Source: Lachnospiraceae bacterium
GTDB taxonomy: Bacteria > Bacillota > Clostridia > Lachnospirales > Lachnospiraceae
Direction of reading: 5' to 3'
Assembly: GCA_031554725.1 (NCBI GenBank)
Contig: JAVBUZ010000058.1
Location: 410-64,409 of the forward strand
DNA length: 64,000 nucleotides
In this document: positions 11,146 to 60,411 of the stretch, in pieces
Numbering within the stretch: the stretch's first letter is position 1
Layout of the letters: each line of letters begins with the position of its first letter
Made by a program: the position numbers and the translations under genes
Notes under the pieces: model-generated
What the model saw: the letters and a program-made list of their open reading frames with translations, nothing else
What the model was told of the DNA's origin: nothing
The model's database searches: none

Positions 11146-12078
11146 ATGATGGCTTTATTGAGTGTCATAGTACCCTGTTATAATGAGCAGGAGACGGTAA
11201 GAGATTTTTACTTGGAATTTATCAAAAATGCTCCTTTCTTTGAAAAAGAGGATATTACATTTGAAATTTTATATGTAAATGATGGATCACGTGACAATAC
11301 AGTAGAAGAGATTAAGAAACTGCATGATGAGGATGCAAGAGTACATCTAATATCCTTTTCTAGGAACTTTGGAAAAGAAGCAGCAATGTACGCTGGCTTG
11401 CAAAAGTGCAAGGGAGACTATGTAGTTATTATGGATGTAGATTTGCAAGATCCCCCAGCTATTTTGCCAGAAATGTTTTCTTATATTAAGAATGGATATG
11501 ATTCTGTAGCAACTAGAAGAGTAAGTCGAAAGGGTGAACCAGTAATTCGCTCACTTTTTGCGCGGATATTCTATCGCTTGATGAAAAAAATTTCAAAAAC
11601 AGAAATTATGGATGGGGCAAGGGACTACCGCTTAATGACAAGACAGGTAGTAGATGCCATTTTATCTATGAATGAATATAATCGATTTACGAAAGGAATA
11701 TTTGGTTGGGTTGGTTTTGAGACCAAATGGATTGAGTTTGAAAATGTAGAGAGAACAAAAGGCGAGACTAAGTGGAACTTTTGGAAGCTTCTACTATACT
11801 CCTTTGAGGGAATCACAGCGTTTTCTACAGCGCCTCTATCTTTTGCAGCTGTGATAGGTGTCTTATTTTGTATGCTAGCCGTATGCCTTGTGTTGTTTAT
11901 TATTATTCGAACCGCAGTTTTTGGCGACCCTGTATCTGGTTGGCCATCACTTGTTTGTATTATTTCCATGATAAGTGGCGTACAATTGTTTTGTATAGGG
12001 ATTGTTGGACAATATTTGGCGAAAACGTATATGGAAGTAAAAAGACGTCCGATTTATTTGATAAAAGAAGAAATCTAG
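11146..12078 (+). CDS. GtrB-like polyprenyl-phosphate glycosyltransferase (GT2), copy 1
   Basis: SVIVPCYNEQ, NDGSRDNT, SRNFGKEAA and MDVDLQDPP, plus two C-terminal TM helices and the terminal KRRPIYLIKE. The architecture matches GtrB/CsbB. Confidence 0.8.
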   Translation: MMALLSVIVPCYNEQETVRDFYLEFIKNAPFFEKEDITFEILYVNDGSRDNTVEEIKKLHDEDARVHLISFSRNFGKEAAMYAGLQKCKGDYVVIMDVDLQDPPAILPEMFSYIKNGYDSVATRRVSRKGEPVIRSLFARIFYRLMKKISKTEIMDGARDYRLMTRQVVDAILSMNEYNRFTKGIFGWVGFETKWIEFENVERTKGETKWNFWKLLLYSFEGITAFSTAPLSFAAVIGVLFCMLAVCLVLFIIIRTAVFGDPVSGWPSLVCIISMISGVQLFCIGIVGQYLAKTYMEVKRRPIYLIKEEI

Positions 12079-12132
12079 GTGAAAATGCGGTAGATTAAGT
12101 AAGATACTTGATGTGATATGCTGATTTACGCG

Positions 12133-12155
12133 ATGAAAATAACTTTTCATTTTTC
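12133..12155 (+). terminator. Weak AT-rich hairpin after GtrB-like copy 1
   Basis: ATGAAAA-taac-TTTTCAT followed by TTTTC. The stem has only one G-C pair. Confidence 0.3.
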
Positions 12156-12159
12156 GACA
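12153..12159. promoter_or_regulatory. Perfect Spo0A-box heptamer (TTCGACA, the reverse complement of TGTCGAA)
   Basis: It is an exact consensus heptamer 68 nt upstream of the GTG start of the Spo0A_C-only gene. A 7-mer is expected several times by chance in 64 kb, so position is the only argument. Confidence 0.25.
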
Positions 12160-12226: not shown

Positions 12227-12604
12227 GTGGATATTGCTAAAGTTACTGACATCGAACTAGAGAAGTACATTACTAAAATTATGTTAGACATAGGGGTACC
12301 GGCGCATCTAAAAGGGTACCATTACTTAAGGGATGCAATTCTTCTGTCAGGGAGGGATATGGAGGTAGTGAGCAGCGTTACAAAATTGTTGTATCCTGTC
12401 ATTGCTAGACATTTTAGAACTACCGATCAAAAAGTAGAAAGAGCGATAAGAAATGCGATAGAAGTATCTTGGGTTAGGGGAAACACAGATACTTTTCACG
12501 AACTCTTTGGCTACAGTGTTGAAACGGGGAAAAATAGACCGACAAACAGCGAGTACATTGCGAGAATTGCAGATAAGATTAGGCTTGATATTAGAGCTAT
12601 GTAA
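12227..12604 (+). CDS. Stand-alone Spo0A C-terminal (DNA-binding effector) domain protein, with no receiver domain
   Basis: Full-length similarity to the Spo0A effector domain: GVPAHLKGYHYLRDAI, VTKLLYPVIARHF, VERAIRNAIEVSWVRGN, LFGY, RPTNSEYIARIADKIRL. GTG start preceded by GGAAGGGG. Only 125 aa. Confidence 0.85.
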   Translation: MDIAKVTDIELEKYITKIMLDIGVPAHLKGYHYLRDAILLSGRDMEVVSSVTKLLYPVIARHFRTTDQKVERAIRNAIEVSWVRGNTDTFHELFGYSVETGKNRPTNSEYIARIADKIRLDIRAM

Positions 12605-12716: not shown

Positions 12717-12719
12717 AAG

Positions 12720-12757: not shown

Positions 12758-13717
12758 ATGTTGGAAGAAATAAAAGAATATTTTCAGCCCTTGAAAAGGA
12801 GAATTCTGGAAGTTATTATGAAAAAACAAAACGTGAGCTTAATAGATCAAATAATTATAGGAAGCTTTATTGTTCTAGGAATAGCAGAGGCTTCACACCT
12901 ATTAACCTTTATACTTGGTATGGAATTTCGTATCTGTGCGACAATTATGGGTATGGGGTTGCTACTATTTGCGGTGGTAAATATTTTCTACAGAGCAAAA
13001 ATGAGAAGAAAAGCAAAATCTTTTCATAAGAATAAAAACTATGCAATTGGTAAGTTTCCAGGCTGGTGCATGTTGATTGCAGGCTTAATTCTGTTTCAAG
13101 TTATTTGGAACTATTATATACAAGAACCATATGTAGAAACGGATATTACGGTAGAAACAGTTCAGACAATTCTTTCTACGAATAGTATTTACGAGATAAA
13201 TCCAATGACTGGAAGAGCATTTACAGAAGGAATGCCAATGCGCCTTAAAATACTTGTGCTACCAGTATTTTATGCAACAATAGGTTTATGGAGCAATGCT
13301 TCGGTGCAGACTATCTGTTATGAGTGGATTCCAACTTTGGTCTTATTACTTAGCTATCTTGTATACAGCAGGTGGGCGGTATATTTGTTTCCAGAGGAAA
13401 GAAAAAAACAATGCATCTTTCTATTTTTTATTGTGCTTTTAAATCAGTTTGGAAATTATGCGACGACTACGGAGAGTTTTTTGCTGTTTTCGAGTGGTTT
13501 TTCTGGTGAAGCAATAAGGGTAGCCGTCATTTTACCATACGTGCTTTTGTCATGCTTGGAAAGGAAATGGTTACGTGCCATATTAGGTGCATTTGCAGAG
13601 CTTTGCATTGTTTGGACCTTCTATGGTTTGGGATATTCGATACTTATTATTGCATTAGTCATATTGATTCGTTTTGTGAAAGGAGTATGTGCGAAAAATG
13701 CAAGAACTCATAAATAA
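12758..13717 (+). CDS. Polytopic membrane protein, unknown family (about 8 TM)
   Basis: It is a long hydrophobic ORF. The probable true start is the ATG at 12818 (MKKQNVSL...), because the putative promoter -10 ends at 12748. Confidence 0.6.
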   Translation: MLEEIKEYFQPLKRRILEVIMKKQNVSLIDQIIIGSFIVLGIAEASHLLTFILGMEFRICATIMGMGLLLFAVVNIFYRAKMRRKAKSFHKNKNYAIGKFPGWCMLIAGLILFQVIWNYYIQEPYVETDITVETVQTILSTNSIYEINPMTGRAFTEGMPMRLKILVLPVFYATIGLWSNASVQTICYEWIPTLVLLLSYLVYSRWAVYLFPEERKKQCIFLFFIVLLNQFGNYATTTESFLLFSSGFSGEAIRVAVILPYVLLSCLERKWLRAILGAFAELCIVWTFYGLGYSILIIALVILIRFVKGVCAKNARTHK

Positions 13718-14522
13718 TATGGAACATGGATATTTGCAGGTAACGGGTGGTGGGCAGTATTTGGCGCTTTTTTTCTTGGCAAGTATTATGCTTGTGCTAT
13801 ATAAAGGAAAAAAGGAAAAGGAACTTTATATTTATGGAATCGTTGTGATTTTTCTTTTACTGTGTCCCCTTACGGCATTTGGCTTACTAAAATATCAGAC
13901 GGCTTTTTATTCATATGCAAGCCTATGGAACTTACTTCCCTTAATCTTGGTAATAGCATATGCGGCAGTGATTATACTTCATATGGCAAGGCAATATAGT
14001 GTGGGGAAACCTGTGATTGGGCATAAGAAATATGGAGAACCCCTACTTGTTTTTTTGATTTCTTTACTGATTTTTATGGCAGGTACGATTTCCTTTGCAA
14101 AGGAGAATACGGTAAAGGCAGCAAATTCGTTTAAAATACCAGCGGAAGAGCTGGAAGTTTTGCAAGAGGTAAGTAGCTTGAATGGTGCGGTTTTGCTGGG
14201 ACCGGATAAGTTGCTTGAATATGCTAGAGCATATAGTGGAGAGTTAGAGCTAATATATGGTAGGAATATGTGGAATCCAGCGTTAAATGCCTATACATAT
14301 GATACCTATTCAGCAGATTTAATCAGGCTTCATGATTGGATGAACGGCGAGGGAGATATGTCTCCTGATGAGGCTCTTAAAATTGCGTTTGCTCATGACT
14401 GTAATGTGCTTGTTCTTGAGAAAGAGGCTTTTAACAATGAGCTGCAAAAAACATTAAATAAGATAGAAACCTTTAGCTATGCAGGTGAGATAGGAAATTA
14501 TGTGATCTTGATACATAGCTGA
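13689..14522 (+). CDS. Membrane protein with a C-terminal soluble domain, unknown family
   Basis: Four to five TM helices are followed by a soluble tail of about 130 aa. It overlaps the previous ORF by 29 nt in another frame. Possible starts are GTG 13689 and ATG 13698. Confidence 0.6.
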   Translation: MRKMQELINNMEHGYLQVTGGGQYLALFFLASIMLVLYKGKKEKELYIYGIVVIFLLLCPLTAFGLLKYQTAFYSYASLWNLLPLILVIAYAAVIILHMARQYSVGKPVIGHKKYGEPLLVFLISLLIFMAGTISFAKENTVKAANSFKIPAEELEVLQEVSSLNGAVLLGPDKLLEYARAYSGELELIYGRNMWNPALNAYTYDTYSADLIRLHDWMNGEGDMSPDEALKIAFAHDCNVLVLEKEAFNNELQKTLNKIETFSYAGEIGNYVILIHS

Positions 14523-14546: not shown

Positions 14547-15311
14547 ATGGAAAATCAAGGTAAGGTAAGTGTTGTTATTCCGATTTATAATGCAGAAGGC
14601 TATATTGCAGAAACGATAGAGAGTGTTTTAAATCAAGATTATGGGAATTGGGAATTGCTTTTAGTGGATGATTTATCTACGGACAATAGTATCAAGGTTA
14701 TGGAAGATATTGCAAGAAGGCATTCAGATAGAGAAATTTACATTCTTAAGCAAGAAGAAAATGGCGGTGCTGCAAGGGCAAGAAATAGAGGCGTAGAAGA
14801 AGCGAAGGGAAGATATATTGCTTATTTAGACGCAGATGATATTTGGGAAGAAAGTAAATTATCAGAGCAGCTTTTTTTCATGAAAGAGCAAAATGCGGCC
14901 TTTTCCTTTACGGGATATGAGTTTGCGGATGAAAATGGTGTAGGCACAGGAAAGGTAGTATCTGTACCTTTGACCATTAGTTATAAGGAAGCATTGCGAA
15001 ATACCACTATTTTTACAACTACAGTAATTTTTGATACAGATTTAATTGCGAAAGAAATGCTTGAGATGCCAAGGATAAAAAGTGAAGATACAGCGCTTTG
15101 GTGGAAGGTTCTAAGAAATGGATATGTAGGGTATGGGCTTAATCGAAACCTTGCAAGATATAGACGAGCAGGAAAAACATTATCCTCCAACAAGCTAGAA
15201 GCTATTAGACGAATTTGGAATTTATATCGACAGGCAGAAGGACTTTCTTTTCTTTATAGTATATACAATTTTTGCTTTTGGGCACTGCGTGCGGTGAAGC
15301 GAAGGGTATAG
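14547..15311 (+). CDS. Family 2 glycosyltransferase
   Basis: VSVVIPIYNAEGYI, VDDLSTDNS and YLDADDIW (DxD motif). Confidence 0.85.
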   Translation: MENQGKVSVVIPIYNAEGYIAETIESVLNQDYGNWELLLVDDLSTDNSIKVMEDIARRHSDREIYILKQEENGGAARARNRGVEEAKGRYIAYLDADDIWEESKLSEQLFFMKEQNAAFSFTGYEFADENGVGTGKVVSVPLTISYKEALRNTTIFTTTVIFDTDLIAKEMLEMPRIKSEDTALWWKVLRNGYVGYGLNRNLARYRRAGKTLSSNKLEAIRRIWNLYRQAEGLSFLYSIYNFCFWALRAVKRRV

Positions 15312-15330
15312 TAAAGAATGTGGTAAGACA

Positions 15331-15349
15331 TGGTAAAATATGTTATACT
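15331..15349 (+). promoter_or_regulatory. Two adjacent extended -10-like elements upstream of the large phosphoglycosyltransferase
   Basis: TGGTAAAAT (15331-15339) and TGTTATACT (15341-15349). I see no good -35. Confidence 0.3.
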
Positions 15350-15393
15350 CATAAAAATATAAATCTACCAAATGATGAAGTAGGAGAAGCTAA

Positions 15394-16797
15394 GTGAAAA
15401 AGTTGGAATCGTTTAAAAGACTAATCTCTTTAACAATGTCAGGTATATGTTTGGGAGTTCAAGTATTGGTATTTGTATACTTTTGGAATTTTCATTACTT
15501 TAATGATATAAAAAAATATTTGGATTTTTGGAACAAAGGACATTGGGTTATTGCTGCAATTTATGCGGTACTTTTATTCTTCTTTACAAATATGTATGGT
15601 GGTGCAAGACTAGGATATTTAAAAAATACAGAGATTGTCTTTTCGCAGATATTTGCTTCCGTAGCAGTTAATGCCATTACCTATTGTCAGATTTCATTAA
15701 TGGTGATGGAACCATACTATTTTAAAACCTATATTACCATGATGATAATCCAAATGGTTTGGATATTTATTTGGACAACCATATCAGGTTATGTTTATAA
15801 AAATGTTTTCCCACCAAGAAGATTATTGGTGGTGCACGGTGATAGACCAATAGATTCTTTGCTACTTAAATTTAATAGTAGAAAGGATAAGTTTGAAATA
15901 AGCAAGTGTATGCATATAAAAGCAGGCTTGGATGCCATAAGGGCAGAGGCGTTAGAACGCTATGATGCAGTGGTTCTTTGGGATATAGAAGACGAGGAAC
16001 GAAGTGCACTTTTGAAATTTTGCTATGGTCAAGGGATTCGTATTTATACAATGCCAAAGATTTCTGATGTTATTTTGAAGGGGTCAGAGGAGTTGCATAT
16101 TTTTGATACACCGCTTTTTCTTACTAGGGAATATTGCTTAACAATTGAACAACGAGTTTTGAAAAGAGCTATAGATCTCTTTTTTTCCATTTTACTTTTT
16201 ATCATTACAATTCCATTTATGATACTTACAGCCTTGGCTGTTAAGCTATATGACAAAGGACCAATTTTGTACAAACAGCTGCGTTGTACTACGGGAGGAA
16301 AAGAGTTTTATATTCTGAAATTCCGAAGTATGCGAATGGATGCAGAGAAGGATGGTGTAGCCAGACTTGCCTCTAAAGGCGACTCAAGAATTACACCCGT
16401 GGGCAAGTTTATTCGTAAGGTACGACTGGATGAGCTACCACAGCTTATGAATATCATCAAGGGAGATATGTCCTTTATTGGGCCACGACCAGAGAGACCA
16501 GAGATTATAGCTCAGTATATGGAAATTATGCCAGAGTTTGCTTTTAGAATGAAAGTAAAGGCAGGATTAGCAGGGTATGCTCAAGTATATGGAAAGTATA
16601 ATACTACACCCTATGACAAGCTAAAGCTAGACTTGGCCTATATCGAAAACTATTCCGTATGGCTAGACATTAAACTTATGCTTTTGACGCTAAAGGTGCT
16701 TTTGTGGCCTGATAGTACGGAGGGTGTAGAGGCTGATCAAATCACAGCTCTACGAGAAGAAATTGAAGAAAAACCAAGAAAAAAACAAGACCAGTGA
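15394..16797 (+). CDS. Large polyprenyl glycosylphosphotransferase (WbaP/CpsE-type initiating enzyme)
   Basis: GTG start after AGGAG. N-terminal TM bundle, central Rossmann-like segment, and a C-terminal bacterial sugar transferase domain (KRAIDLFFSI..., ILKFRSMRMDAE, LDELPQL, GDMSFIGPRPERP). Confidence 0.85.
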   Translation: MKKLESFKRLISLTMSGICLGVQVLVFVYFWNFHYFNDIKKYLDFWNKGHWVIAAIYAVLLFFFTNMYGGARLGYLKNTEIVFSQIFASVAVNAITYCQISLMVMEPYYFKTYITMMIIQMVWIFIWTTISGYVYKNVFPPRRLLVVHGDRPIDSLLLKFNSRKDKFEISKCMHIKAGLDAIRAEALERYDAVVLWDIEDEERSALLKFCYGQGIRIYTMPKISDVILKGSEELHIFDTPLFLTREYCLTIEQRVLKRAIDLFFSILLFIITIPFMILTALAVKLYDKGPILYKQLRCTTGGKEFYILKFRSMRMDAEKDGVARLASKGDSRITPVGKFIRKVRLDELPQLMNIIKGDMSFIGPRPERPEIIAQYMEIMPEFAFRMKVKAGLAGYAQVYGKYNTTPYDKLKLDLAYIENYSVWLDIKLMLLTLKVLLWPDSTEGVEADQITALREEIEEKPRKKQDQ

Positions 16798-16815
16798 TAG
16801 TGGGAGGAAACTAGG

Positions 16816-17868
16816 ATGTGGGAAGCAAAGTATGCCAAGGAGCCTTTTGATTTAAAACTCGTGGTATTGTGTTTTGCTAAAAAAATATGGATTCCCATTT
16901 TGGCCGCTTTCATAGGAGCGGCTGTTTTTGGTGGTGGGTATTTTGTAAAAAACGTGGTATTTGGTGGACCGGTGACTTTTGAAATGACCAGCCAATATTA
17001 TGTAGAATATGGAATTGACCCGCAGGTGGGAAACGAATACACATATATTAACAGTGAAACATGGAATGGCTGGGTTACGACAGATTATTTTATTCAACTC
17101 GTGCTAGAAAATGAGAACGTAAGTAAATATGCTCTAAGTAAAACAGATTTTCAACAATATTTTTCTGCAACCTTAGCAACAGATCTTCGCATTCCAAGTA
17201 GCAAGGTAGTTACTCAAAGTAAAGAGATGACGGCGGACTTGGGTAAGGCATTGGAAGAGGCTTTTGTAGCATTTGGCGAAAAGCAAAAGGAAATTAATGA
17301 AATAACGGTAGTAGATAGCACCGAGGTGACGCAAACAAAAGCAGATATTAGAACAATGAGAGCAACAATTCTAGGAGGGCTTATTGGTCTGTTTTTTGCA
17401 TGCGTTATTATGCTTTTATACTTTTTAATTGATGATTCAATTTATGTTCCAGCCACCTTTTCCTATCGATATGGAATTCCTATGCTGGGCGTAATATTTG
17501 CAGGTCTTAAGACTTCTACAGAACTAGAGGAAAATATAAGCTATGTTCTAGGCAAGGAGGGTAAAATAGCGGTGACTGCATTGGAGCCAGAGATTGATTT
17601 GACAGAGGCAGCGCAGGCGATGAATTTAGGAAGCTATGTATGTGTACCAAGCCCAGAACAGCTGCCAGAGGCGGCAAGGATATTAAGAGAAGCCGAAAAA
17701 GTAGTTCTTTTAATTGAGGCAGGTGCTCATAATGGAAAAAGAATAGAAACCTTATTGCAATATTTGAAAACCCAAGACTGTAAGATAGATGGTGCTGTTT
17801 TATATAATGGAGATGAACACTTAATAGCGGCTTATTGTTATTCTGGTTTTAGAGGAGTAGACAAATGA
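16816..17868 (+). CDS. Wzz/PCP-like chain-length protein fused to a degenerate kinase-like C-terminal domain without a P-loop
   Basis: The topology is TM1, a 150-aa loop, then TM2. Next comes DDSIY...YGIPMLGVI, and then a tail shaped like a BY-kinase domain (KIAVTALEPEIDLTEAAQ..., KVVLLIEAGAHNG, IDGAVLYNGD). It reads LEPEIDLT where Walker A would be expected. Confidence 0.55.
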   Translation: MWEAKYAKEPFDLKLVVLCFAKKIWIPILAAFIGAAVFGGGYFVKNVVFGGPVTFEMTSQYYVEYGIDPQVGNEYTYINSETWNGWVTTDYFIQLVLENENVSKYALSKTDFQQYFSATLATDLRIPSSKVVTQSKEMTADLGKALEEAFVAFGEKQKEINEITVVDSTEVTQTKADIRTMRATILGGLIGLFFACVIMLLYFLIDDSIYVPATFSYRYGIPMLGVIFAGLKTSTELEENISYVLGKEGKIAVTALEPEIDLTEAAQAMNLGSYVCVPSPEQLPEAARILREAEKVVLLIEAGAHNGKRIETLLQYLKTQDCKIDGAVLYNGDEHLIAAYCYSGFRGVDK

Positions 17869-19478: not shown

Positions 19479-19493
19479 CGTAAGAACAAGAGG

Positions 19494-20624: not shown

Positions 20625-20657
20625 CTATTTTATACAAGAAAGTAAAAGGATAAAAAT

Positions 20658-21257: not shown

Positions 21258-21272
21258 GGAATAGGTTACTCT

Positions 21273-22604: not shown

Positions 22605-22623
22605 GGAGCATGAGTATAAATAT

Positions 22624-23793: not shown

Positions 23794-23810
23794 GCTTATA
23801 GGAGTAATGA

Positions 23811-24803: not shown

Positions 24804-24826
24804 AAGTGTAAAGGGATGAAATTAAT

Positions 24827-25708: not shown

Positions 25709-25727
25709 TTTGACAAGGTGAGGAAAA

Positions 25728-28444: not shown

Positions 28445-28468
28445 AAGATAGTGGAGGATAAGGTTAAA

Positions 28469-38257: not shown

Positions 38258-38278
38258 AGAATATCTGAAAGGAGCACC

Positions 38279-39400: not shown

Positions 39401-39430
39401 ATGAAGTAATCCAAATTGAGGAAGTAAATT

Positions 39431-41260: not shown

Positions 41261-41273
41261 GAAGTGAGGCAAC

Positions 41274-47067: not shown

Positions 47068-47096
47068 TTGGCATTTTAAGCGTATGATGTTATAAT
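47068..47096 (+). promoter_or_regulatory. Near-consensus sigma-A promoter with extended -10
   Basis: -35 TTGGCA (47068-47073), a 17-nt spacer ending in TGT, then -10 TATAAT (47091-47096). It lies about 50 nt upstream of pseB. Confidence 0.65.
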
Positions 47097-52376: not shown

Positions 52377-52378
52377 AA

Positions 52379-53329: not shown

Positions 53330-54051
53330 CAATAAACATTATATTTCCAGTGCTAAATGAAAAAAAACGCTTGAAGAACGGCATTGTAAATACCGTGGAG
53401 TATTTAAAAAAAATAGATTTTCAAGACTACAAAATTACCATTGTAGATAATGGGTCTGAAGATGAAACTCCTCAAATAGCCCAGGAGCTAACAGAAAAGT
53501 ATAAAAGAGTTACTTATGAAAGAATTACAGTTCGTGGTGTGGGTGCCGCTTTTCGAAGGGGCGTTGAATTAAATGACTGCGATATTGTAGGCTATATGGA
53601 TATTGATTTGTCTACGAATATTAGGCATTTGGGTGAGGCAATTCATATTTTTGAGAACAGACCTGAGATAGAGTATATAAATGGTAGTAGATTTGCGGCA
53701 CAGTCAGATACGAAAGGTAGAAAGTGGTATCGAAAAATCACTTCTCAAGGGCTGCTTGTTCTATTGAAGCTTTTTCTTGGAATGAAGTCAACAGATGCAA
53801 TTTGCGGATTTACCTTTGTTAGAAAAGACTTGGCGGAGGAACTAGTAAAGGGTTCAAGTCAGGACAATGGTTGGTTTTATATGATAGAATTTTTGCTTCG
53901 AGCAGAAAAGCGTCATAAAAATGTTTTGGATTACCCTGTTACCTGGCAAGAAGACTACAATACAACGGTTAAAATATTTAAGACAATCTGCAATTATATG
54001 GTGCAGATAACAAGATTGTTTGTTGAATTTTATATTAAGAAAAACATATAA
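53326..54051 (+). CDS. GT2, DPM1/Dpg-like polyprenyl-phosphate glycosyltransferase without a TM tail
   Basis: INIIFPVLNE, VDNGSEDET and YMDIDLST. It overlaps the upstream stop by 4 nt. Confidence 0.7.
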   Translation: MTINIIFPVLNEKKRLKNGIVNTVEYLKKIDFQDYKITIVDNGSEDETPQIAQELTEKYKRVTYERITVRGVGAAFRRGVELNDCDIVGYMDIDLSTNIRHLGEAIHIFENRPEIEYINGSRFAAQSDTKGRKWYRKITSQGLLVLLKLFLGMKSTDAICGFTFVRKDLAEELVKGSSQDNGWFYMIEFLLRAEKRHKNVLDYPVTWQEDYNTTVKIFKTICNYMVQITRLFVEFYIKKNI

Positions 54052-54079
54052 GAAAATAGAAGGCTACTAGGAGAAATAC

Positions 54080-55186
54080 GTGATGAGTCAGATTAAAAGA
54101 ATTGATCTAACTAGAAATTTCAAGAATCATCAGCAAGAGTATATAGACGCGATTACAGCTGTTTGTGAAGAAACAGCCTTTTCGGGTGGAAAATATGCGG
54201 ATAAATTTGACGAAGAGTTTGCAGACTTTGTAGGAACAAAATATGCGGCAGGTGTGAATAACGGAACATCGGCGTTACACCTAGCAATGCTAGCCTTGGG
54301 TGTAGGTGCAGGCGATGAGGTGATTGTTCCAGCCAACACGTTTATTGCAACTGCGTGGGGAGTGACTTATACAGGTGCAATTCCAGTTTTTGTAGATTGT
54401 ACTGCCGACACATGGGAAATTGATCCTGATAAAATTGAAGAAAAAATTACTTCTAAGACAAAAGGAATTATAGGAGTGCACCTATATGGACAACCTTTTG
54501 AATACCAAAAGGTTCGTGACATAGCAGATAAATATGGTTTATTTGTGGTAGAGGATTGCGCACAATCTCATGCCGCGTTATATGAAGGAAAACAGGTGGG
54601 AAGCTTAGGTGAGCTGGGTTGCTTTAGCTTTTATCCTGGAAAGAATTTATACGCTTTCGGTGAAGGCGGTAGTGTTACTACTGACAATGAGCTATTTTTC
54701 AAACATATAAATCGTTTAAAAAACCAAGGCTGTGACAGACGCTATTACCATGATGAAATTGGTTATAATATGCGTCTAGAGGGAGTGCAGGGAGCTGTAC
54801 TTAGCGTTAGCCTAAAATATTTAAAGGATTGGACCGAAAGAAGAATTGAAATTGGGGAAAAATATATACGTGAAATTAAGAACCCTCTTATCACAATGCA
54901 GGCTCACCCAAACAATACCAAGCCTGTGTACCATCTTTTTGTAATTACGGTGCCCGAGCAAGAAAAATTTATTGAATATATGCAGGAGAATGGTATTGAA
55001 TGTAACATGCATTATCCGGTACCCTGCCATTTGCAAGAGGCTTATAAGCATTTAATGTATAAACAGGGGGATTGCCCAAATGCAGAATATTTGGCGAGCC
55101 ACTGTGTAACATTGCCCTTGTATCCAGAAATGCAAGCGGACGAAATTGATAAAGTGGTTGCCATGTGCAATGGGTTTATGGGATAA
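54080..55186 (+). CDS. DegT/DnrJ/EryC1/StrS-family sugar aminotransferase
   Basis: VNNGTSALHLAMLALG, the CFSFYPGKNLYAFGEGG lysine motif, and IGYNMRLEGVQGAVL. Confidence 0.85.
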   Translation: MMSQIKRIDLTRNFKNHQQEYIDAITAVCEETAFSGGKYADKFDEEFADFVGTKYAAGVNNGTSALHLAMLALGVGAGDEVIVPANTFIATAWGVTYTGAIPVFVDCTADTWEIDPDKIEEKITSKTKGIIGVHLYGQPFEYQKVRDIADKYGLFVVEDCAQSHAALYEGKQVGSLGELGCFSFYPGKNLYAFGEGGSVTTDNELFFKHINRLKNQGCDRRYYHDEIGYNMRLEGVQGAVLSVSLKYLKDWTERRIEIGEKYIREIKNPLITMQAHPNNTKPVYHLFVITVPEQEKFIEYMQENGIECNMHYPVPCHLQEAYKHLMYKQGDCPNAEYLASHCVTLPLYPEMQADEIDKVVAMCNGFMG

Positions 55187-55212: not shown

Positions 55213-56127
55213 ATGGACAAGATTGCAATATTAATTCCCTGTTATAATGAAGAGAAAACAATTGGAAAGGTAGTACGAGATGCCAAGGCAGCAATACCAG
55301 AGGCGGTGGTCTACGTTTATGATAATAACTCAAAAGACAGAACGGTAGAACTTGCTAAGGAAGCAGGAGCTGTTGTGAAATATGAATATAAGCAAGGAAA
55401 AGGCAACGTAATTCGTCGTATGTTCCGCGAGGTGAATGCTGAGTGCTATCTAATGATAGATGGTGATGATACCTATCCACTAGAATCGGCAAGAGAAATG
55501 GTTGAGAAGATTTTATACCATAATGCAGATATGGTGGTAGGTGACAGACTTTCTTCTACCTATTTTACAGAGAATAAACGTCCCTTCCATAATTTCGGAA
55601 ATAGTATTGTTCGTGGAACAATTAATTGGCTGTTTGGCTCTGATATAAAAGATATTATGACAGGCTTTCGTGCGTTTAGTTATAGCTTTGTAAAAACATT
55701 TCCGGTTTGCTCTGCAGGATTTGAAATTGAAACAGAGATGACGATACATGCAGTAAATTATCGACTACAGGTTGAAAATATAGTAGTAGATTATAGAGAC
55801 CGACCAGAAGGAAGCGAATCAAAGTTAAACACCTATTCTGATGGTATAAAGGTGCTTTGGAAGATAGTTCATATGTTTAAGACCTATAAGCCATTAGGAT
55901 TTTTTGGGGCAATTAGTGTGCTATTAATGCTTGTGGCAGTGGCCTTTTTTGCTCCTATATTGGTTGAGTTTCTAAAAACAGGACTGGTACCTAAATTTCC
56001 AACCTTTATTGCTAGTTGCTTTTTGGGAATCGCATCCTTGCAGTCTTTCTTCACTGGATTAATGCTTTCTTGCATCAATACCAAGGATAAGAAAGATTTC
56101 GAGTACCGTTTAAATGGTATTAAATAA
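55213..56127 (+). CDS. GtrB-like polyprenyl-phosphate glycosyltransferase (GT2), copy 4
   Basis: IAILIPCYNEEKTI, YDNNSKDRT and MIDGDDTYP, plus two C-terminal TM helices. Confidence 0.75.
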   Translation: MDKIAILIPCYNEEKTIGKVVRDAKAAIPEAVVYVYDNNSKDRTVELAKEAGAVVKYEYKQGKGNVIRRMFREVNAECYLMIDGDDTYPLESAREMVEKILYHNADMVVGDRLSSTYFTENKRPFHNFGNSIVRGTINWLFGSDIKDIMTGFRAFSYSFVKTFPVCSAGFEIETEMTIHAVNYRLQVENIVVDYRDRPEGSESKLNTYSDGIKVLWKIVHMFKTYKPLGFFGAISVLLMLVAVAFFAPILVEFLKTGLVPKFPTFIASCFLGIASLQSFFTGLMLSCINTKDKKDFEYRLNGIK

Positions 56128-56154: not shown

Positions 56155-56679
56155 GTGTTAGGAAGAGTGGAGAACGGAATATATCTTAGGGCTATGACTC
56201 TAGAGGATACCTCTAATGTTGTAACATGGCGAAATAGTGAAGCGGTGAGAAGCAGATTTATTTATAGAGAGCTTTTTACCGTAGAATCTCACTTAAAATG
56301 GGTGGAAACGATGGTAGACACTGGGAAAGTGGTGCAGACCATTATTTGTGATGCTAAAACGGATAAGCCCTTGGGTTCGGTATATATAAGAGATATTGAT
56401 TTAACTCATAATAAAGGTGAATATGGAATTTTTATTGGTGAGGAAGAGGCAAGAGGTAAAGGCGTTGGAACAACAGCTGCTAAGCTGATGGTAGAACATG
56501 CTTTTGAAGATATGAAGTTGCATCGATTATACTTGCGAGTTTTTGCAGATAATACGCAAGCAATTAGAAGCTATGAAAAGGCGGGGTTTCAGAAAGAAGC
56601 CCATTTGAAGGATGATGTTTACATTGATAATACATATCATGATATTGTTTTAATGGCAATTGTGAGGAAGGAAGTTTAA
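56155..56679 (+). CDS. GNAT-family N-acetyltransferase (PseH/RimL-like)
   Basis: VVTWRNSEAVRSRF, HLKWVE, GKGVGTTAAKLMVEHAF, NTQAIRSYEKAGF. GTG start. Confidence 0.75.
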   Translation: MLGRVENGIYLRAMTLEDTSNVVTWRNSEAVRSRFIYRELFTVESHLKWVETMVDTGKVVQTIICDAKTDKPLGSVYIRDIDLTHNKGEYGIFIGEEEARGKGVGTTAAKLMVEHAFEDMKLHRLYLRVFADNTQAIRSYEKAGFQKEAHLKDDVYIDNTYHDIVLMAIVRKEV

Positions 56680-56682
56680 GGC

Positions 56683-57624
56683 ATGAAAAAGATAAGTTTT
56701 GTAATACCCTGTTATCGATCGGCACACACCCTACCCCATGTTATTGCCGAAATAAGTGCGGTTATGGAAAAACTAAATAACTATGACTATGAAGTGGTGT
56801 TAGTGAATGATAGCTCACCAGACAATACATTTGAAATCATTAGAAGATTATGTGAAGAAAATGATAAACTAAGAGGAATTAATTTTTCTCAAAATTTTGG
56901 ACAGCATGCTGCACTTATGGCAGGTCTACGCCATACAACCGGTGAGTATGTGGTGTGTTTAGACGATGATGGACAAACACCAGCGGATGAAGTAGATAAG
57001 CTGATTGATAAGCTGGAAGAGGGGTTTGATGCTGTTTATGCAAGCTATGAACATAAAAGGCATTCTGCTTTTCGTAATCTAGGAAGTAAGGTCAATGAGC
57101 TAATGACTCGCTATATGCTAGGGAAACCCAAGGATTTATATCTATCTAGCTACTTTGCAGTAAAACGTTTTATTGTTGAAGATATGATCAAATACGAAAA
57201 CTCCTATCCATATGTCATTGGCTTGGTACTTCGTGCTACGAAAAATATTACAAATGTACCAGTAAATCATCGAGAACGTGAAGAAGGTGCTTCAGGATAT
57301 ACACTGAAGAAGCTTTTGGGATTATGGTTTAATGGGTTTACAGCATTTTCCATTAAGCCTCTTAGAGTTGCTACAGGGGTAGGAATATTTTGCGCCTGCG
57401 GTGGATTTGCCTATGGAATATACACGGTCATAAAGAGAATTGTAAATCCTAATGTACCACAGGGCTTTAGCGCCAGCATGGCAGCGATTGTATTTATAGG
57501 CGGAATGATTATGATTATGTTAGGACTTATAGGTGAGTATATAGGAAGAATTTATATAAGCTTGAATAATTCTCCTCAATATGTAATAAGAGAAAGAATT
57601 AATGTGGAAAAAAAGGAAATCTAA
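56683..57624 (+). CDS. ArnC/GtrB-like polyprenyl-phosphate glycosyltransferase (GT2), copy 5
   Basis: ISFVIPCYRS, VNDSSPDNT, SQNFGQHAALMAG and LDDDGQTPA, plus two C-terminal TM helices. Confidence 0.8.
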   Translation: MKKISFVIPCYRSAHTLPHVIAEISAVMEKLNNYDYEVVLVNDSSPDNTFEIIRRLCEENDKLRGINFSQNFGQHAALMAGLRHTTGEYVVCLDDDGQTPADEVDKLIDKLEEGFDAVYASYEHKRHSAFRNLGSKVNELMTRYMLGKPKDLYLSSYFAVKRFIVEDMIKYENSYPYVIGLVLRATKNITNVPVNHREREEGASGYTLKKLLGLWFNGFTAFSIKPLRVATGVGIFCACGGFAYGIYTVIKRIVNPNVPQGFSASMAAIVFIGGMIMIMLGLIGEYIGRIYISLNNSPQYVIRERINVEKKEI

Positions 57625-57629
57625 AAAGC

Positions 57630-59207
57630 ATGGAAAACAATTTGAAACGTAGCGTAAAAATTATGAATGGGATAAAGAAAAGAGAAGGGCTAATTACAGC
57701 ACTAATTATGTCGCTATTACCTTTATTGTGCTGTATTGTAACCTGCGCACTTGAAGGTAGAGGGATAAAGGATGTCTATCTTCCCGGTTCTGAATGGAAT
57801 GATGAGCTGTTCTATTTCAAGCAAGTGGAGGGAATTATTAATTATGGCTTTCCACAAGGTTTCTTTGGTTTTAATGAAAGCCACGCCTTGAAACTGTCTT
57901 TTGCGGCATGGAGCCCTGTTTTAGTGTGGCCATGGCTTATTTGGGGAGCGGTATTTGGGTGGAATTTGATGTCTCCTATTTATTGCAATATCTTTTTGAT
58001 GATGCTTACGATGTTCTTGTTTGTTTGGTTGGTGAAGCCATCTAAAAAGCAACTAGGAATTTTGGCAATTCTTTTTATAACATTTACACCATTTACACGC
58101 TATATGCTTTCTGGGATGCCAGAGGTAATTTGCTTCTCCATGGTTATCCTAGTTTTAACAGTAGGTATCTGTTACCTAAGAAAGGAACACCTTGGAAAGC
58201 TTGTTTTATTGTTTGTTATGACATCAGTGATGACCTTAATGAGACCTTATCTAATTGTGTTTATGCTTTTGCCTATTTACTTAAGCGTTAGAAAAAGCAA
58301 ATGGATTGGAGCGGGTGCTTCGTTAGGTACCATTGTGGTAACAGGAGGCGCCTATGCGGCGATTAAGCACTTTTTAGGAGCAGAATATTTTGCCCCATTA
58401 TTTGATACAACATGGGTGGAAAAGTTTTTGCATGAAGGAATTTTTCAAGGTACAAAATACGTTATTTATCGTTTGTGGACGGTGGGCAAGGTGTTTACGG
58501 GGATGCTACTTGAAGGATTTAAAACAGGACTAGCATCAGGAGCGCTATTTGCTGGCTTCATGCTAGTAATGGCAATTTTGTTTATACAAGCATGGATGAA
58601 TTATAGAAAAAAAGAAAAGAACGCCCTTGTTATTAATTTGTATTTGGCTATTTGCTTTTTCGGGATGTGGATGGCACTACTTTTAATGTATAAGATGACA
58701 GAGGGAAGTAAACATTTGGCAACATTTATTGCAGTGGGTATTTTTGCGATATGCCTTATGGAAACAAGATTTTATAAAAAAATGATTGTTGCCACGGCTG
58801 TTTTTGCCTATTTGTATAGCATTATGGCATTGGATCCTTATGATTATCAAATTCCATTTAGAACCCAAGAGTTAGTAGAAGAGGAAGATACATGGCAGAG
58901 TATATTTGATAGCAATCTGGAGTTTGCTAAGCAGGAGGTCCCCAATTTTGAAAATGTAGTCATTTGGACCTTTAATGATGTGGTGAATGAAAAGTCCTTG
59001 CTTACACCATGGCAATACTTATATATGCTACCAGAAGGATATGGCATTAGCTGCTGTGAAAGAAAATATGTGCTTGAAGAACTGGGAGAGCTAAAGAGTA
59101 AGTATTTGGCAGTGGTTCCTGGCGGCGAAATAGAGACCCTTTGTGTTGAACAAGGCAAAAAAGAAGTTGGACGTAGTGAAGGAATGGTATTATATGAGTT
59201 ACACTAA
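57630..59207 (+). CDS. Polytopic membrane protein, GT-C-like candidate
   Basis: TM1 is followed by LPGSEWNDELFYFKQ. About 11 TM helices and a soluble tail of about 120 aa. Confidence 0.5.
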   Translation: MENNLKRSVKIMNGIKKREGLITALIMSLLPLLCCIVTCALEGRGIKDVYLPGSEWNDELFYFKQVEGIINYGFPQGFFGFNESHALKLSFAAWSPVLVWPWLIWGAVFGWNLMSPIYCNIFLMMLTMFLFVWLVKPSKKQLGILAILFITFTPFTRYMLSGMPEVICFSMVILVLTVGICYLRKEHLGKLVLLFVMTSVMTLMRPYLIVFMLLPIYLSVRKSKWIGAGASLGTIVVTGGAYAAIKHFLGAEYFAPLFDTTWVEKFLHEGIFQGTKYVIYRLWTVGKVFTGMLLEGFKTGLASGALFAGFMLVMAILFIQAWMNYRKKEKNALVINLYLAICFFGMWMALLLMYKMTEGSKHLATFIAVGIFAICLMETRFYKKMIVATAVFAYLYSIMALDPYDYQIPFRTQELVEEEDTWQSIFDSNLEFAKQEVPNFENVVIWTFNDVVNEKSLLTPWQYLYMLPEGYGISCCERKYVLEELGELKSKYLAVVPGGEIETLCVEQGKKEVGRSEGMVLYELH

Positions 59208-60411
59208 ATTTTGGAATAAAAATAAGAATATTGATGTGGCGTTATTTTGCATACTGTTAATTCTGCATACGGTAATTATGTTTATCTTGTTTCAAAGACA
59301 AGTGCTAGGAAGTGAAAGCTATTATCATTCCGATATGAAGGCATATATCTTGGAAATGCAAGGATTGAACACAAAGTATAGTTTCCCCTATCCTATCTTC
59401 TTTAAGCTAGGAGCACTATTTCATTTGTTCGTTAGTAGTCCAGAGCTTAGTATTGCTCTTGCGGCGACAGTGCTAAATGCTTTTAGTCCGATATTTTTAA
59501 AGTATTATATGGATAAAACCTTAAGTCAGTATGAAAAAGAAAAACTATGGGTGAGTTTATTAACAACTGTAGTGATATTTTCTATATTTTTTGTATCTAT
59601 GGTATATATACCTGGTGGAAGATTTCTTCCGGGACTGCGATTCAGATATGTAGGTATTTTTTCGCCGAATCCTTTTCATAATGCAACTTATATGGCAACT
59701 AGGCCATTCTCAATTGTGTGCTTTTTTGTATTTGCCAAGATTTTGCTAGAATATGAGAAGAAGATAAACTGGAAAGACAATATTGTATTTGCCGTATTTC
59801 TACTACTAACGACGATGACAAAGCCGAGCTTTACCTTTGTATTAGTGCCAGCGGCGGGCCTTATTATGTTATATCGTTTGATTAGAAGTCGTTTCTCAAA
59901 TTTTGTACCAACAATCCAGCTAGGTATTTGTTTTATCCCTACTTTTTGTGCCCTATTGTATCAATTTTTTGGTGTGTTTGGCCCTATAGAAGAGGGTGAA
60001 AGTGGGATTGGCTTTGGTATAGCAACAGCGTGGAAGCTGTATAGCAGTAATATACTCTTTTCGGTATTATTGGCAGCAGCATTTCCAATTGCGGTATTTG
60101 TTTTTAACTATAAAGAGGTAAAAAAGGAAGGCTTTTATCGCTTTTCGCTACAATTATTTTTGATGAGTTTCGCACAGGTCTTTTTCTTGTATGAAAAGGG
60201 ATTTAGGTTGCCAGACATGAATTTTTCTTGGGGATATATGCATGGAATATTTTTTGCCTTTGTAGCATCGTTGTTGATACTTATAAAAAACACATATTTG
60301 AAAAATCAAAAGCCTTGGATTTTAGGTGTACAATGGCTGGCTTATTTGGGGCATTTTGTACTTGGAATTTTATATTTTAGCGGCATTTTTATGGGTGGTT
60401 CCTACTACTAA
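59194..60411 (+). CDS. Polytopic membrane protein, unknown family
   Basis: About 11 TM helices, with GSESYYHSDMKAY after TM1. The ATG at 59194 (MSYTKFW) overlaps the upstream stop by 14 nt. The listed start at 59143 is probably too early. Confidence 0.5.
   Translation: MSYTKFWNKNKNIDVALFCILLILHTVIMFILFQRQVLGSESYYHSDMKAYILEMQGLNTKYSFPYPIFFKLGALFHLFVSSPELSIALAATVLNAFSPIFLKYYMDKTLSQYEKEKLWVSLLTTVVIFSIFFVSMVYIPGGRFLPGLRFRYVGIFSPNPFHNATYMATRPFSIVCFFVFAKILLEYEKKINWKDNIVFAVFLLLTTMTKPSFTFVLVPAAGLIMLYRLIRSRFSNFVPTIQLGICFIPTFCALLYQFFGVFGPIEEGESGIGFGIATAWKLYSSNILFSVLLAAAFPIAVFVFNYKEVKKEGFYRFSLQLFLMSFAQVFFLYEKGFRLPDMNFSWGYMHGIFFAFVASLLILIKNTYLKNQKPWILGVQWLAYLGHFVLGILYFSGIFMGGSYY

Follow-up and report, generated by a model that had tools for sequence, protein, structure and literature searches.

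A 64,000-nt stretch of contig JAVBUZ010000058.1 (assembly GCA_031554725.1, positions 410 to 64,409), from an uncultured Lachnospiraceae bacterium and hereafter called the window, carries a glycan locus of more than 50 kb. Its core is best read as a set of GtrB-type synthases of polyprenyl-phosphate sugars that would work with a large set of membrane transferases of the GT-C structural class. This core interpretation, first proposed in an initial annotation made from the sequence alone, is supported by two predicted GT-C folds, by links to the PMT_2 family, by invariant acidic motifs, by the adjacency of genes for glycosyltransferases of family 2 (GT2) and of the GT-C class, and by donor enzymes that are better conserved than their GT-C partners. 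On the best explanation of the whole, this is probably the principal locus for cell-envelope glycan in a gut bacterium related to Acetatifactor, with repeat-unit synthesis and multi-component transmembrane glycosylation as two stages of one pathway. The mechanism itself is already known, and the locus is an extreme, uncharacterised variant of it rather than a new mechanism. It stands out by its scale, by how many of its GT-C families had gone unrecognised, by having more GT-C candidates than donors, and by the predicted diversion of a Pse intermediate. Literature searches found no description of this locus type. Genes and their products are designated below by the lower coordinate of the gene in the window (Table 1).

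AlphaFold2 models were built for two polytopic proteins without a Pfam family, 57630 and 59194, and compared with the PDB by Foldseek; both came out as GT-C folds and not as transporters. The model of 57630, obtained from an alignment of 63 sequences, has a predicted local distance difference test (pLDDT) score of 91.3 and a predicted template-modelling (pTM) score of 0.91. All of its top 33 PDB matches are GT-C proteins (probability ~1.0, TMq 0.30–0.48), including AglB, ArnT (5ezm), ALG9, STT3, DPY19, ALG12, PglB, EmbA/B, AftD, and Pmt, whereas transporters reach template-modelling (TM) scores of at most 0.16. For the model of 59194 (67 sequences, pLDDT 89.9) the leading matches are PglB, AftA, Pmt4, and ArnT, with EmbB and PimE at ranks 10 and 12. 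Six of its top seven matches are GT-C chains (probability ≥0.96); for those with an aligned length of at least ~380 columns, TMq is 0.42–0.49, and every non-GT-C match has a TM score of at most 0.2. On the strength of these models, 57630 and 59194 are assigned as GT-C enzymes. Both models lack the large C-terminal domain of the STT3/PglB type that bears the WWDYG motif, and 59194 is almost devoid of a soluble domain. A role of 59194 as the missing flippase of the locus was considered and rejected in view of its GT-C fold and the low scores of transporter folds.

GT-C proteins share a conserved N-terminal module of transmembrane helices, in which the first extracytoplasmic loop is long and carries the catalytic Asp or Glu. 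Six acidic motifs suspected to play this part proved invariant among homologues without exception: W56-N57-D58-E59 in 57630 (63 sequences), W33, D35, D37, and E41 in 43759 (54 sequences), D38 in 39431 (60 representatives, 28–49% identity), Y-H-M-D-E in 45350 (14/14), D-E-Y in 42402 (7/7), and F-M-M-D-D in 31815 (D36 and D37, 63/63 homologues). Further invariant acidic residues were found in 59194 (D47 and E54), 34863 (D116, 26/26), and 32941 (D193, 37/37), so that nine families possess them altogether. The invariant Asp/Glu follows the first transmembrane helix in most families and later helices in 32941, 34863, and perhaps 42402. Since the N-terminus ahead of the first helix is rich in Lys and Arg in the six proteins with the listed motifs, as well as in 59194, the positive-inside rule predicts that the motifs face outward, more tentatively so in 42402, whose motif follows the first helices. 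No invariant acidic loop residue was identified in 12758. The sequence AEWWDTGY of 39431 was also tried as the WWDYG motif of oligosaccharyltransferases and rejected, as it follows the first transmembrane helix, which is the wrong position, and its Trp residues are not conserved.

On the donor side, all six genes labelled in the initial annotation as GtrB/ArnC/DPM1-like (11146, 37310, 52379, 53326, 55213, and 56683) carry GT2 domains by Pfam, and sequence comparison predicts that all six encode polyprenyl-phosphate-sugar synthases of the ArnC, GtrB, DPMS, or AglJ-like class. The label was thus right, although two members depart from the type: 53326, of 241 aa, is a soluble protein without a transmembrane helix, and 52379 is atypical in its motif. 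The other five proteins, 52379 included, end in a transmembrane hairpin of two helices. The 11146 protein matches NCBIfam PgfS over its full length (E 1e-94, below the cut-off) and ArnC (E 1e-46), and its transmembrane segments lie at residues 222–290. The 55213 protein matches the archaeal AglJ, again over its full length and below the cut-off (E 4e-60), with DPMS (5mlz, E 8e-11) as the best solved relative. The PDB matches of 56683 to ArnC are followed by GtrB (5ekp, E 3e-38) and then by DPMS; since its NCBIfam ArnC score is 190 bits against an equivalog cut-off of 529, it is an ArnC homologue and not an orthologue. A weak NCBIfam match of 53326 to mycobacterial PpgS is likewise below the equivalog cut-off. 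The D-x-D motif is invariant in the families of 53326, 55213, and 56683, as is D-G-D-D among 49 sequences of the 55213 family, whereas the 52379 family has an invariant E-F-D where D-x-D is expected. The genes 52379 and 53326 overlap, and 24 related loci contain them side by side. By analogy with GacI/GacJ, in which a soluble GT-A enzyme works with a separate membrane protein (PMC8035078), the two may work as a pair.

The association of donor and GT-C genes was followed through 80 related Lachnospiraceae loci centred on 57630 homologues; loci of this type are present in no fewer than 205 species-level genomes. The genes for the PseH-like acetyltransferase of the GCN5-related family (GNAT, 56155), the ArnC-like GT2 (56683), and the GT-C protein 57630 are all present in 68/80 loci in nearly fixed order. 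The GT2 gene directly adjoins that of the GT-C protein in 60 loci, and 57630 follows 56683 in 60/70 cases. A DUF6020 gene of the 32941 type lies directly downstream of 55213 homologues in 27/48 cases, which suggests that 55213 works with 32941, located 20 kb away in the window, and 32941 is the likely partner of this AglJ-like synthase. Homologues of 37310 (67–84% identity) are followed by an Acyl_transf_3 gene and then by a transferase that differs by genome. This third gene is of the 39431 type in locus L001, whereas L008 and L012 have a full-length DUF6077 gene (E 2e-106) with a 13689-like gene; an overlapping pair like that of 12758 and 13689 is also present in L013. It is plausible from these neighbourhoods that the 12758/13689 unit uses a GtrB-type donor, which in the window would be 11146. 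The cassette of a FAD-dependent oxidoreductase, 52379, 53326, and a DegT aminotransferase (51243–55186) is kept as a block in 23–24 related loci. In some loci, a GT-C gene of the GtrII family (PF14264) adjoins a GtrB-like gene.

Examination of which pairs co-vary, as advised in the initial annotation, revealed conserved donors and variable adjacent GT-C partners. Median identities of the donors are 77% (56683), 70% (55213), and 77% (53326), as compared with 54% (57630), 49% (59194), and 31% (32941) for the GT-C partners. At least 20 further polytopic families were found in the related loci, among them GtrII (PF14264), DUF6044, PMT_2, DUF6056, DUF6541, and MBOAT. The 52 related loci of at least 20 kb have a median of 5 polytopic genes (range 2–11) and 2 GtrB-class genes per 21.5 kb; the density is thus characteristic of the clade rather than of the window. 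Metagenome neighbourhoods of DUF6056 homologues were mostly unrelated to the window genes, with no consistent GT2 partner.

An open reading frame (ORF) exists at every start that had been listed for a polytopic protein, but several of the products belong to Pfam families, 13689 is no GT-C protein, and the list had overlooked the polytopic products of 19494 (EpsG family) and 38279 (Acyl_transf_3). The description of these proteins as members of unrecognised families does not hold for 12758, 31815, 32941, 45350, and, with a match below the cut-off, 34863, whereas it stands for 39431, 42402, 43759, 57630, and 59194. At least four GT-C candidate families (39431, 42402, 43759, and 59194) are without a Pfam model; thus, none of the 571 homologues of 43759 has a Pfam match. 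The 57630 protein of the window scores below every Pfam cut-off, and its family of ~1,400 homologues stands at the edge of PMT_2: some homologues have precomputed PMT_2 matches, and one bears the name GT39 in its source record. The family of 59194 is of the same size (~1,400 homologues), one of which has a precomputed match to PF11028, given by accession only, which we take to be the TMEM260-type family DUF2723. By hhalign, the DUF6020 protein 32941 is linked to the family of the PMT_2-like protein 34863 (93.8% probability), the sole link among the polytopic proteins. An all-against-all BLASTP comparison of the polytopic proteins of the window showed no similarity, which argues against a recent expansion of paralogues and says nothing on fold. 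Sequence and profile searches of the PDB with 57630, 59194, 43759, 39431, and 45350 gave no matches; since even the PMT_2-positive 45350 went unmatched, such searches are too insensitive for GT-C proteins.

The genes 12758 and 13689 overlap by 29 nt. The product of the latter is a conserved partner subunit of the DUF6077 protein and not a polytopic enzyme of its own, and together the two likely form the transferase used by the neighbouring GT2, to judge from the sequence comparisons. The pair is not a frameshifted pseudogene, an explanation that was rejected because the two-gene arrangement recurs in L013, L008, and L012. DUF6077 genes were in every case followed by an overlapping partner gene for four transmembrane helices and a soluble domain, as at 12758–14522 in the window, 11554–13144 in L013, and 18443–20285 in L008, and such pairs may encode a two-subunit membrane enzyme. 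Between the 13689-type partner and the C-terminal half of 39431-family proteins there is a weak resemblance (hhalign, 32%).

The polytopic proteins could also be mainly flippases, Wzy polymerases, ligases, or transporters, and the acidic motifs incidental. The locus would then serve conventional capsule synthesis, dependent on Wzx/Wzy or on an ABC transporter, and would merely have unusual membrane components. Indeed, 19494 belongs to the EpsG family and 30260 is Wzy_C-like, five polytopic proteins have no profile link to GT-C, and, with no annotated Wzx, a flippase of great divergence could be among them. We regard this explanation as highly improbable, given that both modelled proteins are GT-C with transporter folds scoring at most 0.2, that PMT_2 and GtrII relationships are present, that the Asp/Glu of the outward loop is invariant in every family examined, and that the genes tightly adjoin those of the GtrB class.

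Several points nonetheless weigh against the assignment of the whole set to donor-dependent GT-C glycosylation. All steps are predicted from sequence, models, and gene order. The fold was modelled for 2 of the ~10 polytopic proteins, and the other eight rest on Pfam, topology, and motif. In particular, hhalign and PDB profile searches link none of 31815, 39431, 42402, 43759, and 12758 to GT-C, and these five are candidates by topology and motif. The ~10 GT-C candidates face 5–6 donor synthases, and the pairing is therefore not one to one; 52379 may even be non-catalytic, as E-x-D replaces D-x-D. Neither the window nor the 80 related loci yielded a flippase for undecaprenyl-phosphate sugars, and the acceptor may be a polysaccharide or a protein. 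Furthermore, a gene closely related to 43759 stands alone, outside glycan loci, in a human-gut species of very high prevalence, and its surroundings were uninformative as to pairing. This orphan gene (10001–11605 in L082–L085) lies between genes for a DEAD-box helicase and ispF, and its cluster was found on 229 contigs.

In the two-stage pathway that we favour, the first stage can be outlined from domain content. A repeat unit would be built in the cytoplasm on undecaprenyl diphosphate by the PglC-like enzyme 20658, the WbaP-type enzyme 15394, and soluble GT2 and GT4 glycosyltransferases. It would then be flipped, probably by the PglK-like ATP-binding cassette (ABC) exporter 62894. Its polymerisation or ligation would fall to 19494 (EpsG family) and 30260 (Wzy_C-like), together with the Wzz-like protein 16816. 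In the second stage, 5–6 GT2 enzymes (11146, 37310, 55213, 56683, and 53326, with or without 52379) would load single sugars onto undecaprenyl phosphate at the cytoplasmic face. After flipping, ~10 GT-C-type transferases (57630, 59194, 34863, 45350, 32941, 31815, 12758 with 13689, 39431, 42402, and 43759) would add these sugars to the glycan outside the membrane, and possibly to proteins, by means of the invariant Asp/Glu in the outward-facing loop. This second stage draws on the modelled folds of 57630 and 59194 and on the gene pairing seen in the neighbourhoods; we infer its chemistry, its combinatorial character, and the nature of the acceptor, which may be polysaccharide or protein. Additional tailoring outside the membrane would be due to the Acyl_transf_3/SGNH pair (38279 and 36409) and the secreted glycoside hydrolase of family 5 (GH5, 28451). 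The genes of the former pair flank the GtrB-like gene 37310 and resemble a split version of the fused acyltransferase-3 (AT3)-SGNH O-acetyltransferases. The hydrolase, which has a C-terminal extension of ~200 aa matching no family, may trim or release the polymer.

The best-defined module involves PseB (47147), PseC (60462), and the PseH-like GNAT (56155), which together would make UDP-2,4-diacetamido-2,4,6-trideoxy-L-altrose. The ArnC-like enzyme 56683 would load the diacetamido-trideoxy sugar onto undecaprenyl phosphate, and 57630 and 59194 would then transfer it to the acceptor. This Arn-like branch is suggested by the PseH-like gene being locked beside those of the ArnC-like GT2 and the GT-C protein, and the second-best NCBIfam match of PseC, which is ArnB, fits the analogy. 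No PseG, PseI, or PseF was found among the ORFs of the window, and their genes could sit beyond it. Other precursors are predicted from sequence as well. GDP-L-fucose would be made de novo by the products of gmd and fcl, the FKP-like enzyme 48225 would add a salvage route to GDP-fucose, and the WecE-type transaminase 41274 would contribute to sugar supply as well. The presence of an FKP-like gene and de novo gmd/fcl genes in one locus of a Firmicute is reminiscent of the surface fucosylation through fucose salvage in Bacteroides. The cassette 51243–55186 might serve to oxidise and then transaminate a sugar bound to a lipid or to a nucleotide.

The initial annotation had reported the absence of GtrA and of MOP/Wzx flippases from the window, and this was borne out, as no ORF has such a Pfam match and all unoccupied stretches, being shorter than 200 bp, leave no room for one. 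No match to the Pfam family of small multidrug resistance (SMR) proteins was found among the window ORFs either. The accompanying statement that flipping is unexplained needs to be divided. For the diphosphate-linked unit, a gene for a PglK-like ABC exporter begins 2.5 kb beyond the originally described block, whereas nothing was found for the monophosphate-linked sugars. The best PDB match of 62894 is PglK/WlaB (5c73 and 6hrc, E 2e-17, residues 5–337 against 2–334 of the chain), with MsbA next (1e-3); full-length homologues have ~580 aa, and in the related loci their genes always come after one of the 61799 type (24 loci). We therefore propose 62894 as a candidate flippase of lipid-linked glycans, on sequence similarity. 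Together with the PglC-like 20658 and the PglF-type 26576, it could explain flipping of the diphosphate unit without Wzx. In the 80 related loci, the nearest flippase-type match was one weak partial Polysacc_synt.

A missing GtrA-type gene in cis is not unusual, because Gram-positive systems usually share an unlinked GtrA-type flippase (PMC8035078). One such flippase can serve several GT-A/GT-C pairs: in L. lactis, CflA is shared among three pairs to which it is not linked, and in Listeria, Bacillus, and S. aureus, GtcA is encoded apart from most of its pairs (PMC8035078). The flippase family differs between systems, and direct demonstration is lacking (PMC11127046). By analogy with Lactococcus, Listeria, and Bacillus, the monophosphate-linked sugars are most likely flipped by an unlinked, shared protein of the GtrA or SMR type, and it is less likely that the PglK-like exporter also flips undecaprenyl-phosphate sugars. 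A scheme that does assign both lipid types to this exporter, with a wall or capsular heteropolysaccharide largely assembled outside the membrane by ~10 GT-C enzymes of several undescribed families from 5–6 undecaprenyl-phosphate sugars, one of them a Pse intermediate diverted by an ArnC-like enzyme, seems to us rather unlikely as a whole.

A related question is whether the GT-C enzymes would build the main chain itself outside the membrane, sugar by sugar, in the manner of the mycobacterial Emb, Aft, and Mpt enzymes of arabinan and mannan synthesis. The ratio of ~10 GT-C candidates to 5–6 lipid-monophosphate donors is nearer to the mycobacterial machinery for arabinogalactan and lipoarabinomannan than to Gtr-type addition of side chains, AftA, EmbA/B, and PimE are among the Foldseek matches, and 53326 resembles mycobacterial PpgS. 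Runs of 3–6 polytopic genes with no interleaved GT2 gene are also conserved in related loci (39431, 42402, 45350, 30260, 57630, and 59143; L003–L005), as exemplified in the window by 42402, 43759, and 45350, the genes of which are joined by overlapping stops and starts. However, the locus has a complete-looking cytoplasmic repeat-unit block with genes for a polymerase and for chain length, the variation of GT-C proteins across genomes with conserved donors is typical of variable decoration, and nothing points to processivity of these enzymes. We thus consider main-chain assembly by the GT-C enzymes to be unlikely.

About equally doubtful is the explanation that proteins, such as S-layer proteins, Ser/Thr-rich surface proteins, or flagellin, are the acceptors for some or even most GT-C enzymes, in the manner of streptococcal Pgf, of actinobacterial Pmt, or of block transfer as in Pgl. 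It could account for the best NCBIfam match of 11146 and 37310 being PgfS, a synthase for protein glycosylation in S. mutans, for the matches of 45350, 34863, and 57630 homologues to PMT_2, the family of protein O-mannosyltransferases, and for the oligosaccharyltransferases AglB and PglB among the top Foldseek matches. The locus also includes PglC-, PglF-, and PglK-like genes, and the Wzy_C/O-antigen-ligase-like protein 30260 belongs to a family that includes O-oligosaccharyltransferases of the PglL type. The absence of the large STT3/PglB-type C-terminal domain from 57630 and 59194 speaks against this explanation, as does the position of the non-conserved "WWD" of 39431, and no obvious gene for a Ser/Thr-rich target lies within the window. 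Moreover, the Wzz-like protein, the EpsG-family polymerase, and the two phosphoglycosyltransferases of the locus are typical of polysaccharide synthesis. We favour decoration of a polysaccharide assembled from cytoplasmic repeat units, tentatively as regards both the acceptor and the choice between decoration and extension.

Among characterised systems, the Gtr O-antigen glucosylation of Shigella and Salmonella phages has the same basic composition of a GtrB-class GT2 with a transmembrane hairpin and a polytopic GT-C. It also combines a conserved donor (GtrB) with a highly variable, type-specific GT-C, and GtrII proteins occur in some of the related loci. The present system differs from it by the absence of GtrA, by the concentration of 5–6 donors and ~10 GT-C candidates in one chromosomal locus as opposed to one of each on a prophage, by its Gram-positive host, and by donors that probably include amino and deoxy sugars and not only glucose. 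The Gram-positive wall-polymer systems CsbB/GtcA/YfhO, GtlA/GtlB, CsdAB/CD/EF with CflA of lactococci, and GacI/J/K/L of streptococci follow the same logic with the same GT-A/GT-C pairing, and their flippase is often unlinked and shared (PMC8035078). The soluble GT-A and its membrane partner in GacI/GacJ parallel 53326 with 52379, and GT-C proteins of these systems are too divergent to be recognised except by structure. In contrast to the single block described here, they comprise 1–3 pairs scattered in the genome, and the locus has far more donor/GT-C pairs than any studied system.

The Arn pathway shares with the predicted Pse branch the succession of 4-aminotransferase, N-acylation, ArnC transfer to undecaprenyl phosphate, and GT-C transfer; ArnT is among the top Foldseek matches of 57630 and 59194, and 56683 matches ArnC. 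Here, however, the sugar is a predicted 2,4-diacetamido-2,4,6-trideoxyhexose, and the acylating enzyme is a GNAT acetyltransferase and not a formyltransferase. The window ORFs include no ArnA-type formyltransferase/decarboxylase, no ArnD deformylase, and no ArnE/F (SMR), and with a Firmicute as host, lipid A is excluded as the acceptor. In the S. mutans Pgf system (PgfS, PgfM1, PgfE, and PgfM2), whose synthase is nearest to 11146 and 37310, one GT2 serves two GT-C proteins (PMC12041528), as 56683 may serve 57630 and 59194. The scores obtained here are below the PgfS equivalog cut-off, and no PgfE-type epimerase adjoins.

The mycobacterial machinery of EmbA/B/C, AftA-D, PimE, and PpgS/Rv3632/Rv3779 is similar in having many GT-C enzymes and few polyprenyl-monophosphate donors, and the soluble, PpgS-like 53326 and the AftA, Emb, and PimE structures among the matches add to the likeness. 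There is no relationship at the sequence level, the genes are here clustered in one block, and the donors come from nucleotide sugars through GT2 enzymes and not from phosphoribosyl pyrophosphate. Finally, the Campylobacter jejuni Pgl system (PglF, E, D, C, K, and B) has counterparts here in PglC-, PglF-, and PglK-like proteins, but the present locus lacks a PglB-type oligosaccharyltransferase with WWDYG and possesses polymerase and chain-length genes and many GT-C candidates for lipid-monophosphate donors.

The window has ~37% G+C and a positive GC skew throughout. The closest relatives of its proteins, at 50–66% identity, are encoded by Lachnospiraceae, in genomes as well as metagenome-assembled genomes, most of which carry the label Acetatifactor and others Waltera. 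The description of 11146–60411 as one-directional and tightly packed was accurate: the block has 41 co-directional genes on the plus strand and is 97.7% coding, with 8 junctions formed by stop/start overlaps, 25 gaps of at most 35 nt, and a largest gap of 153 nt. The six minus-strand ORFs of at least 100 aa in it all lie antisense within plus-strand genes and are artefacts. These limits were nevertheless drawn too narrowly, since the locus starts at 8972 with gmd/fcl and passes the end of the window, resuming past pseC with the GT38-like gene 61799 and the ABC exporter gene 62894.

Counts from promoter and terminator scans equalled those of shuffled sequence. Sites similar to intrinsic terminators did not exceed their frequency in shuffled sequence, and the intergenic gaps of the block are free of them; the three sites from these scans judged worth noting are listed in Table 1. 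Rfam and tRNA scans of the window gave no matches. The housekeeping genes cdaA, cdaR, and glmM, an HPr-like gene, and leuA precede the locus. The first three form the canonical Firmicute cdaA-cdaR (YbbR)-glmM operon (533–4053, plus strand) just upstream, and GlmM yields glucosamine-1-phosphate, a precursor of UDP-GlcNAc, which the locus consumes heavily. Embedded in the locus is a Spo0A_C protein without a receiver domain (12227–12604), which may regulate it.

Table 1. Coordinates of genes, gene groups, and sites in the window.
Feature	Position	Strand	Evidence or remark
Promoter-like site	8917-8945		Promoter scan; upstream of gmd (8972)
gmd	8972-10087	+	Pfam GDP_Man_Dehyd E 3e-147; 5' start of locus
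fcl	10089-11030	+	NCBIfam GDP-L-fucose synthase, 490 bits vs cut-off 500
GtrB/PgfS/ArnC-like GT2, predicted polyprenyl-phosphate-sugar synthase 1	11146-12078	+	Pfam GT2 E 1e-33
Stand-alone Spo0A C-terminal DNA-binding domain protein, 125 aa	12227-12604	+	Pfam Spo0A_C E 1e-39
DUF6077 polytopic protein	12758-13717	+	Pfam DUF6077 E 4.5e-34
Partner of DUF6077, ~4 transmembrane helices and soluble domain	13689-14522	+	No Pfam family
Cytoplasmic repeat-unit assembly block	14547-26471	+	Pfam, NCBIfam
GT2 genes of repeat-unit block	14547, 17865, 18660, 23811, 25728	+	
Large WbaP/WcaJ-type phosphoglycosyltransferase	15394	+	
Wzz-like protein	16816	+	Weak GNVR match
EpsG-family polymerase, polytopic	19494	+	Pfam
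PglC-like small phosphoglycosyltransferase	20658	+	Best PDB match PglC E 1.6e-34
GT4 genes	21273, 22624	+	
Epimerase/reductase	24827	+	
Membrane-anchored PglF/CapD-type UDP-GlcNAc 4,6-dehydratase	26576-28444	+	Pfam Polysacc_synt_2 E 4e-124, CoA_binding_3; N-terminal transmembrane helices
Secreted lipobox-like GH5 glycoside hydrolase	28451-30229	+	Pfam Cellulase E 3e-46; N-terminal ...AFSACGT
O-antigen-ligase/Wzy-polymerase-like polytopic protein	30260-31822	+	Pfam Wzy_C E 1e-3, below cut-off; ~10 transmembrane helices
DUF6056 polytopic protein, GT-C candidate	31815-32936	+	Pfam DUF6056 E 2e-71; FMMDD after first transmembrane helix
DUF6020 polytopic protein, GT-C candidate	32941-34818	+	Pfam DUF6020 E 3e-36
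PMT_2-like polytopic protein, GT-C candidate	34863-36437	+	Pfam PMT_2 E 6e-5, 23.7 bits vs cut-off 26.1
Module B (SGNH 36409, GT2 37310, Acyl_transf_3 38279, polytopic 39431, WecE-type 41274)	36409-42401	+	
Membrane-anchored SGNH/GDSL hydrolase	36409-37284	+	Pfam
GtrB/PgfS-like GT2	37310-38257	+	Full-length NCBIfam PgfS and ArnC matches, below curated cut-offs
Acyl_transf_3 polytopic protein	38279-39400	+	Pfam
Polytopic protein, invariant D38	39431-41260	+	No Pfam match; family of 858 representative clusters
WecE-type dTDP-4-amino-4,6-dideoxyhexose transaminase	41274	+	NCBIfam WecE 644 bits, above cut-off
Polytopic protein, D57-E58-Y59	42402-43772	+	No Pfam family
Polytopic protein, W33/D35/D37/E41	43759-45360	+	No Pfam family
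Polytopic protein, motif YHMDE	45350-47059	+	PMT_2 above cut-off
Promoter-like site	47068-47096		Promoter scan, 11/12 positions and extended TG; upstream of PseB gene (47147)
PseB, inverting UDP-GlcNAc 4,6-dehydratase	47147-48154	+	NCBIfam PseB 548 bits vs cut-off 408
FKP-like fucokinase/GDP-fucose pyrophosphorylase, 995 aa	48225-51212	+	FKP E 3e-143, below cut-off
FAD-dependent oxidoreductase	51243	+	Pfam; first gene of four-gene cassette 51243-55186
Divergent GT2 with transmembrane hairpin, invariant E-x-D	52379	+	Pfam; motif alignment
Soluble DPMS/PpgS-like GT2	53326	+	DPMS 5mlz E 2e-14 (best solved relative)
DegT aminotransferase	54080	+	Pfam; last gene of cassette 51243-55186
AglJ/DPMS-like GT2 with transmembrane hairpin, predicted polyprenyl-phosphate-hexose synthase	55213-56127	+	
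Module C (PseH-like GNAT 56155, GT2 56683, GT-C 57630, GT-C 59194)	56155-60411	+	
PseH-like GNAT	56155	+	89 bits vs cut-off 93
ArnC-like GT2	56683-57624	+	Three ArnC structures E 3e-51, residues 1-312
Predicted GT-C protein	57630-59207	+	No Pfam family; AlphaFold2 and Foldseek
Second, compact predicted GT-C protein	59194-60411	+	No Pfam family; AlphaFold2 and Foldseek
Hairpin, 15-bp stem, bidirectional	60424-60457	.	Terminator scan; between end of plus-strand block and convergent pseC
PseC, UDP-4-amino-4,6-dideoxy-N-acetyl-beta-L-altrosamine transaminase	60462-61661	-	NCBIfam 479 bits vs 423.5
GT38 polysialyltransferase-like glycosyltransferase	61799-62869	+	Pfam A-2_8-polyST 24.7 bits vs cut-off 23.3
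PglK-like ABC exporter, transmembrane domain only	62894-64000 (runs off window end)	+	Pfam ABC_membrane E 8e-10

Lachnospiraceae are dominant gut commensals, the surface glycans of which are almost unstudied. If the proposed pathway is correct, the swapping of GT-C transferases with retained donors would generate a large diversity of antigens and phage receptors. Likewise, the route from PseB, PseC, and PseH through an ArnC-like GT2 to GT-C enzymes would place a diacetamido-trideoxyhexose on a lipid-monophosphate carrier. At least four abundant GT-C candidate families without a Pfam model (39431, 43759, 59194, and 42402) would represent new enzyme families, and the several GT-A/GT-C pairs with no nearby GtrA-type gene offer a test case for the protein that flips undecaprenyl-phosphate sugars.

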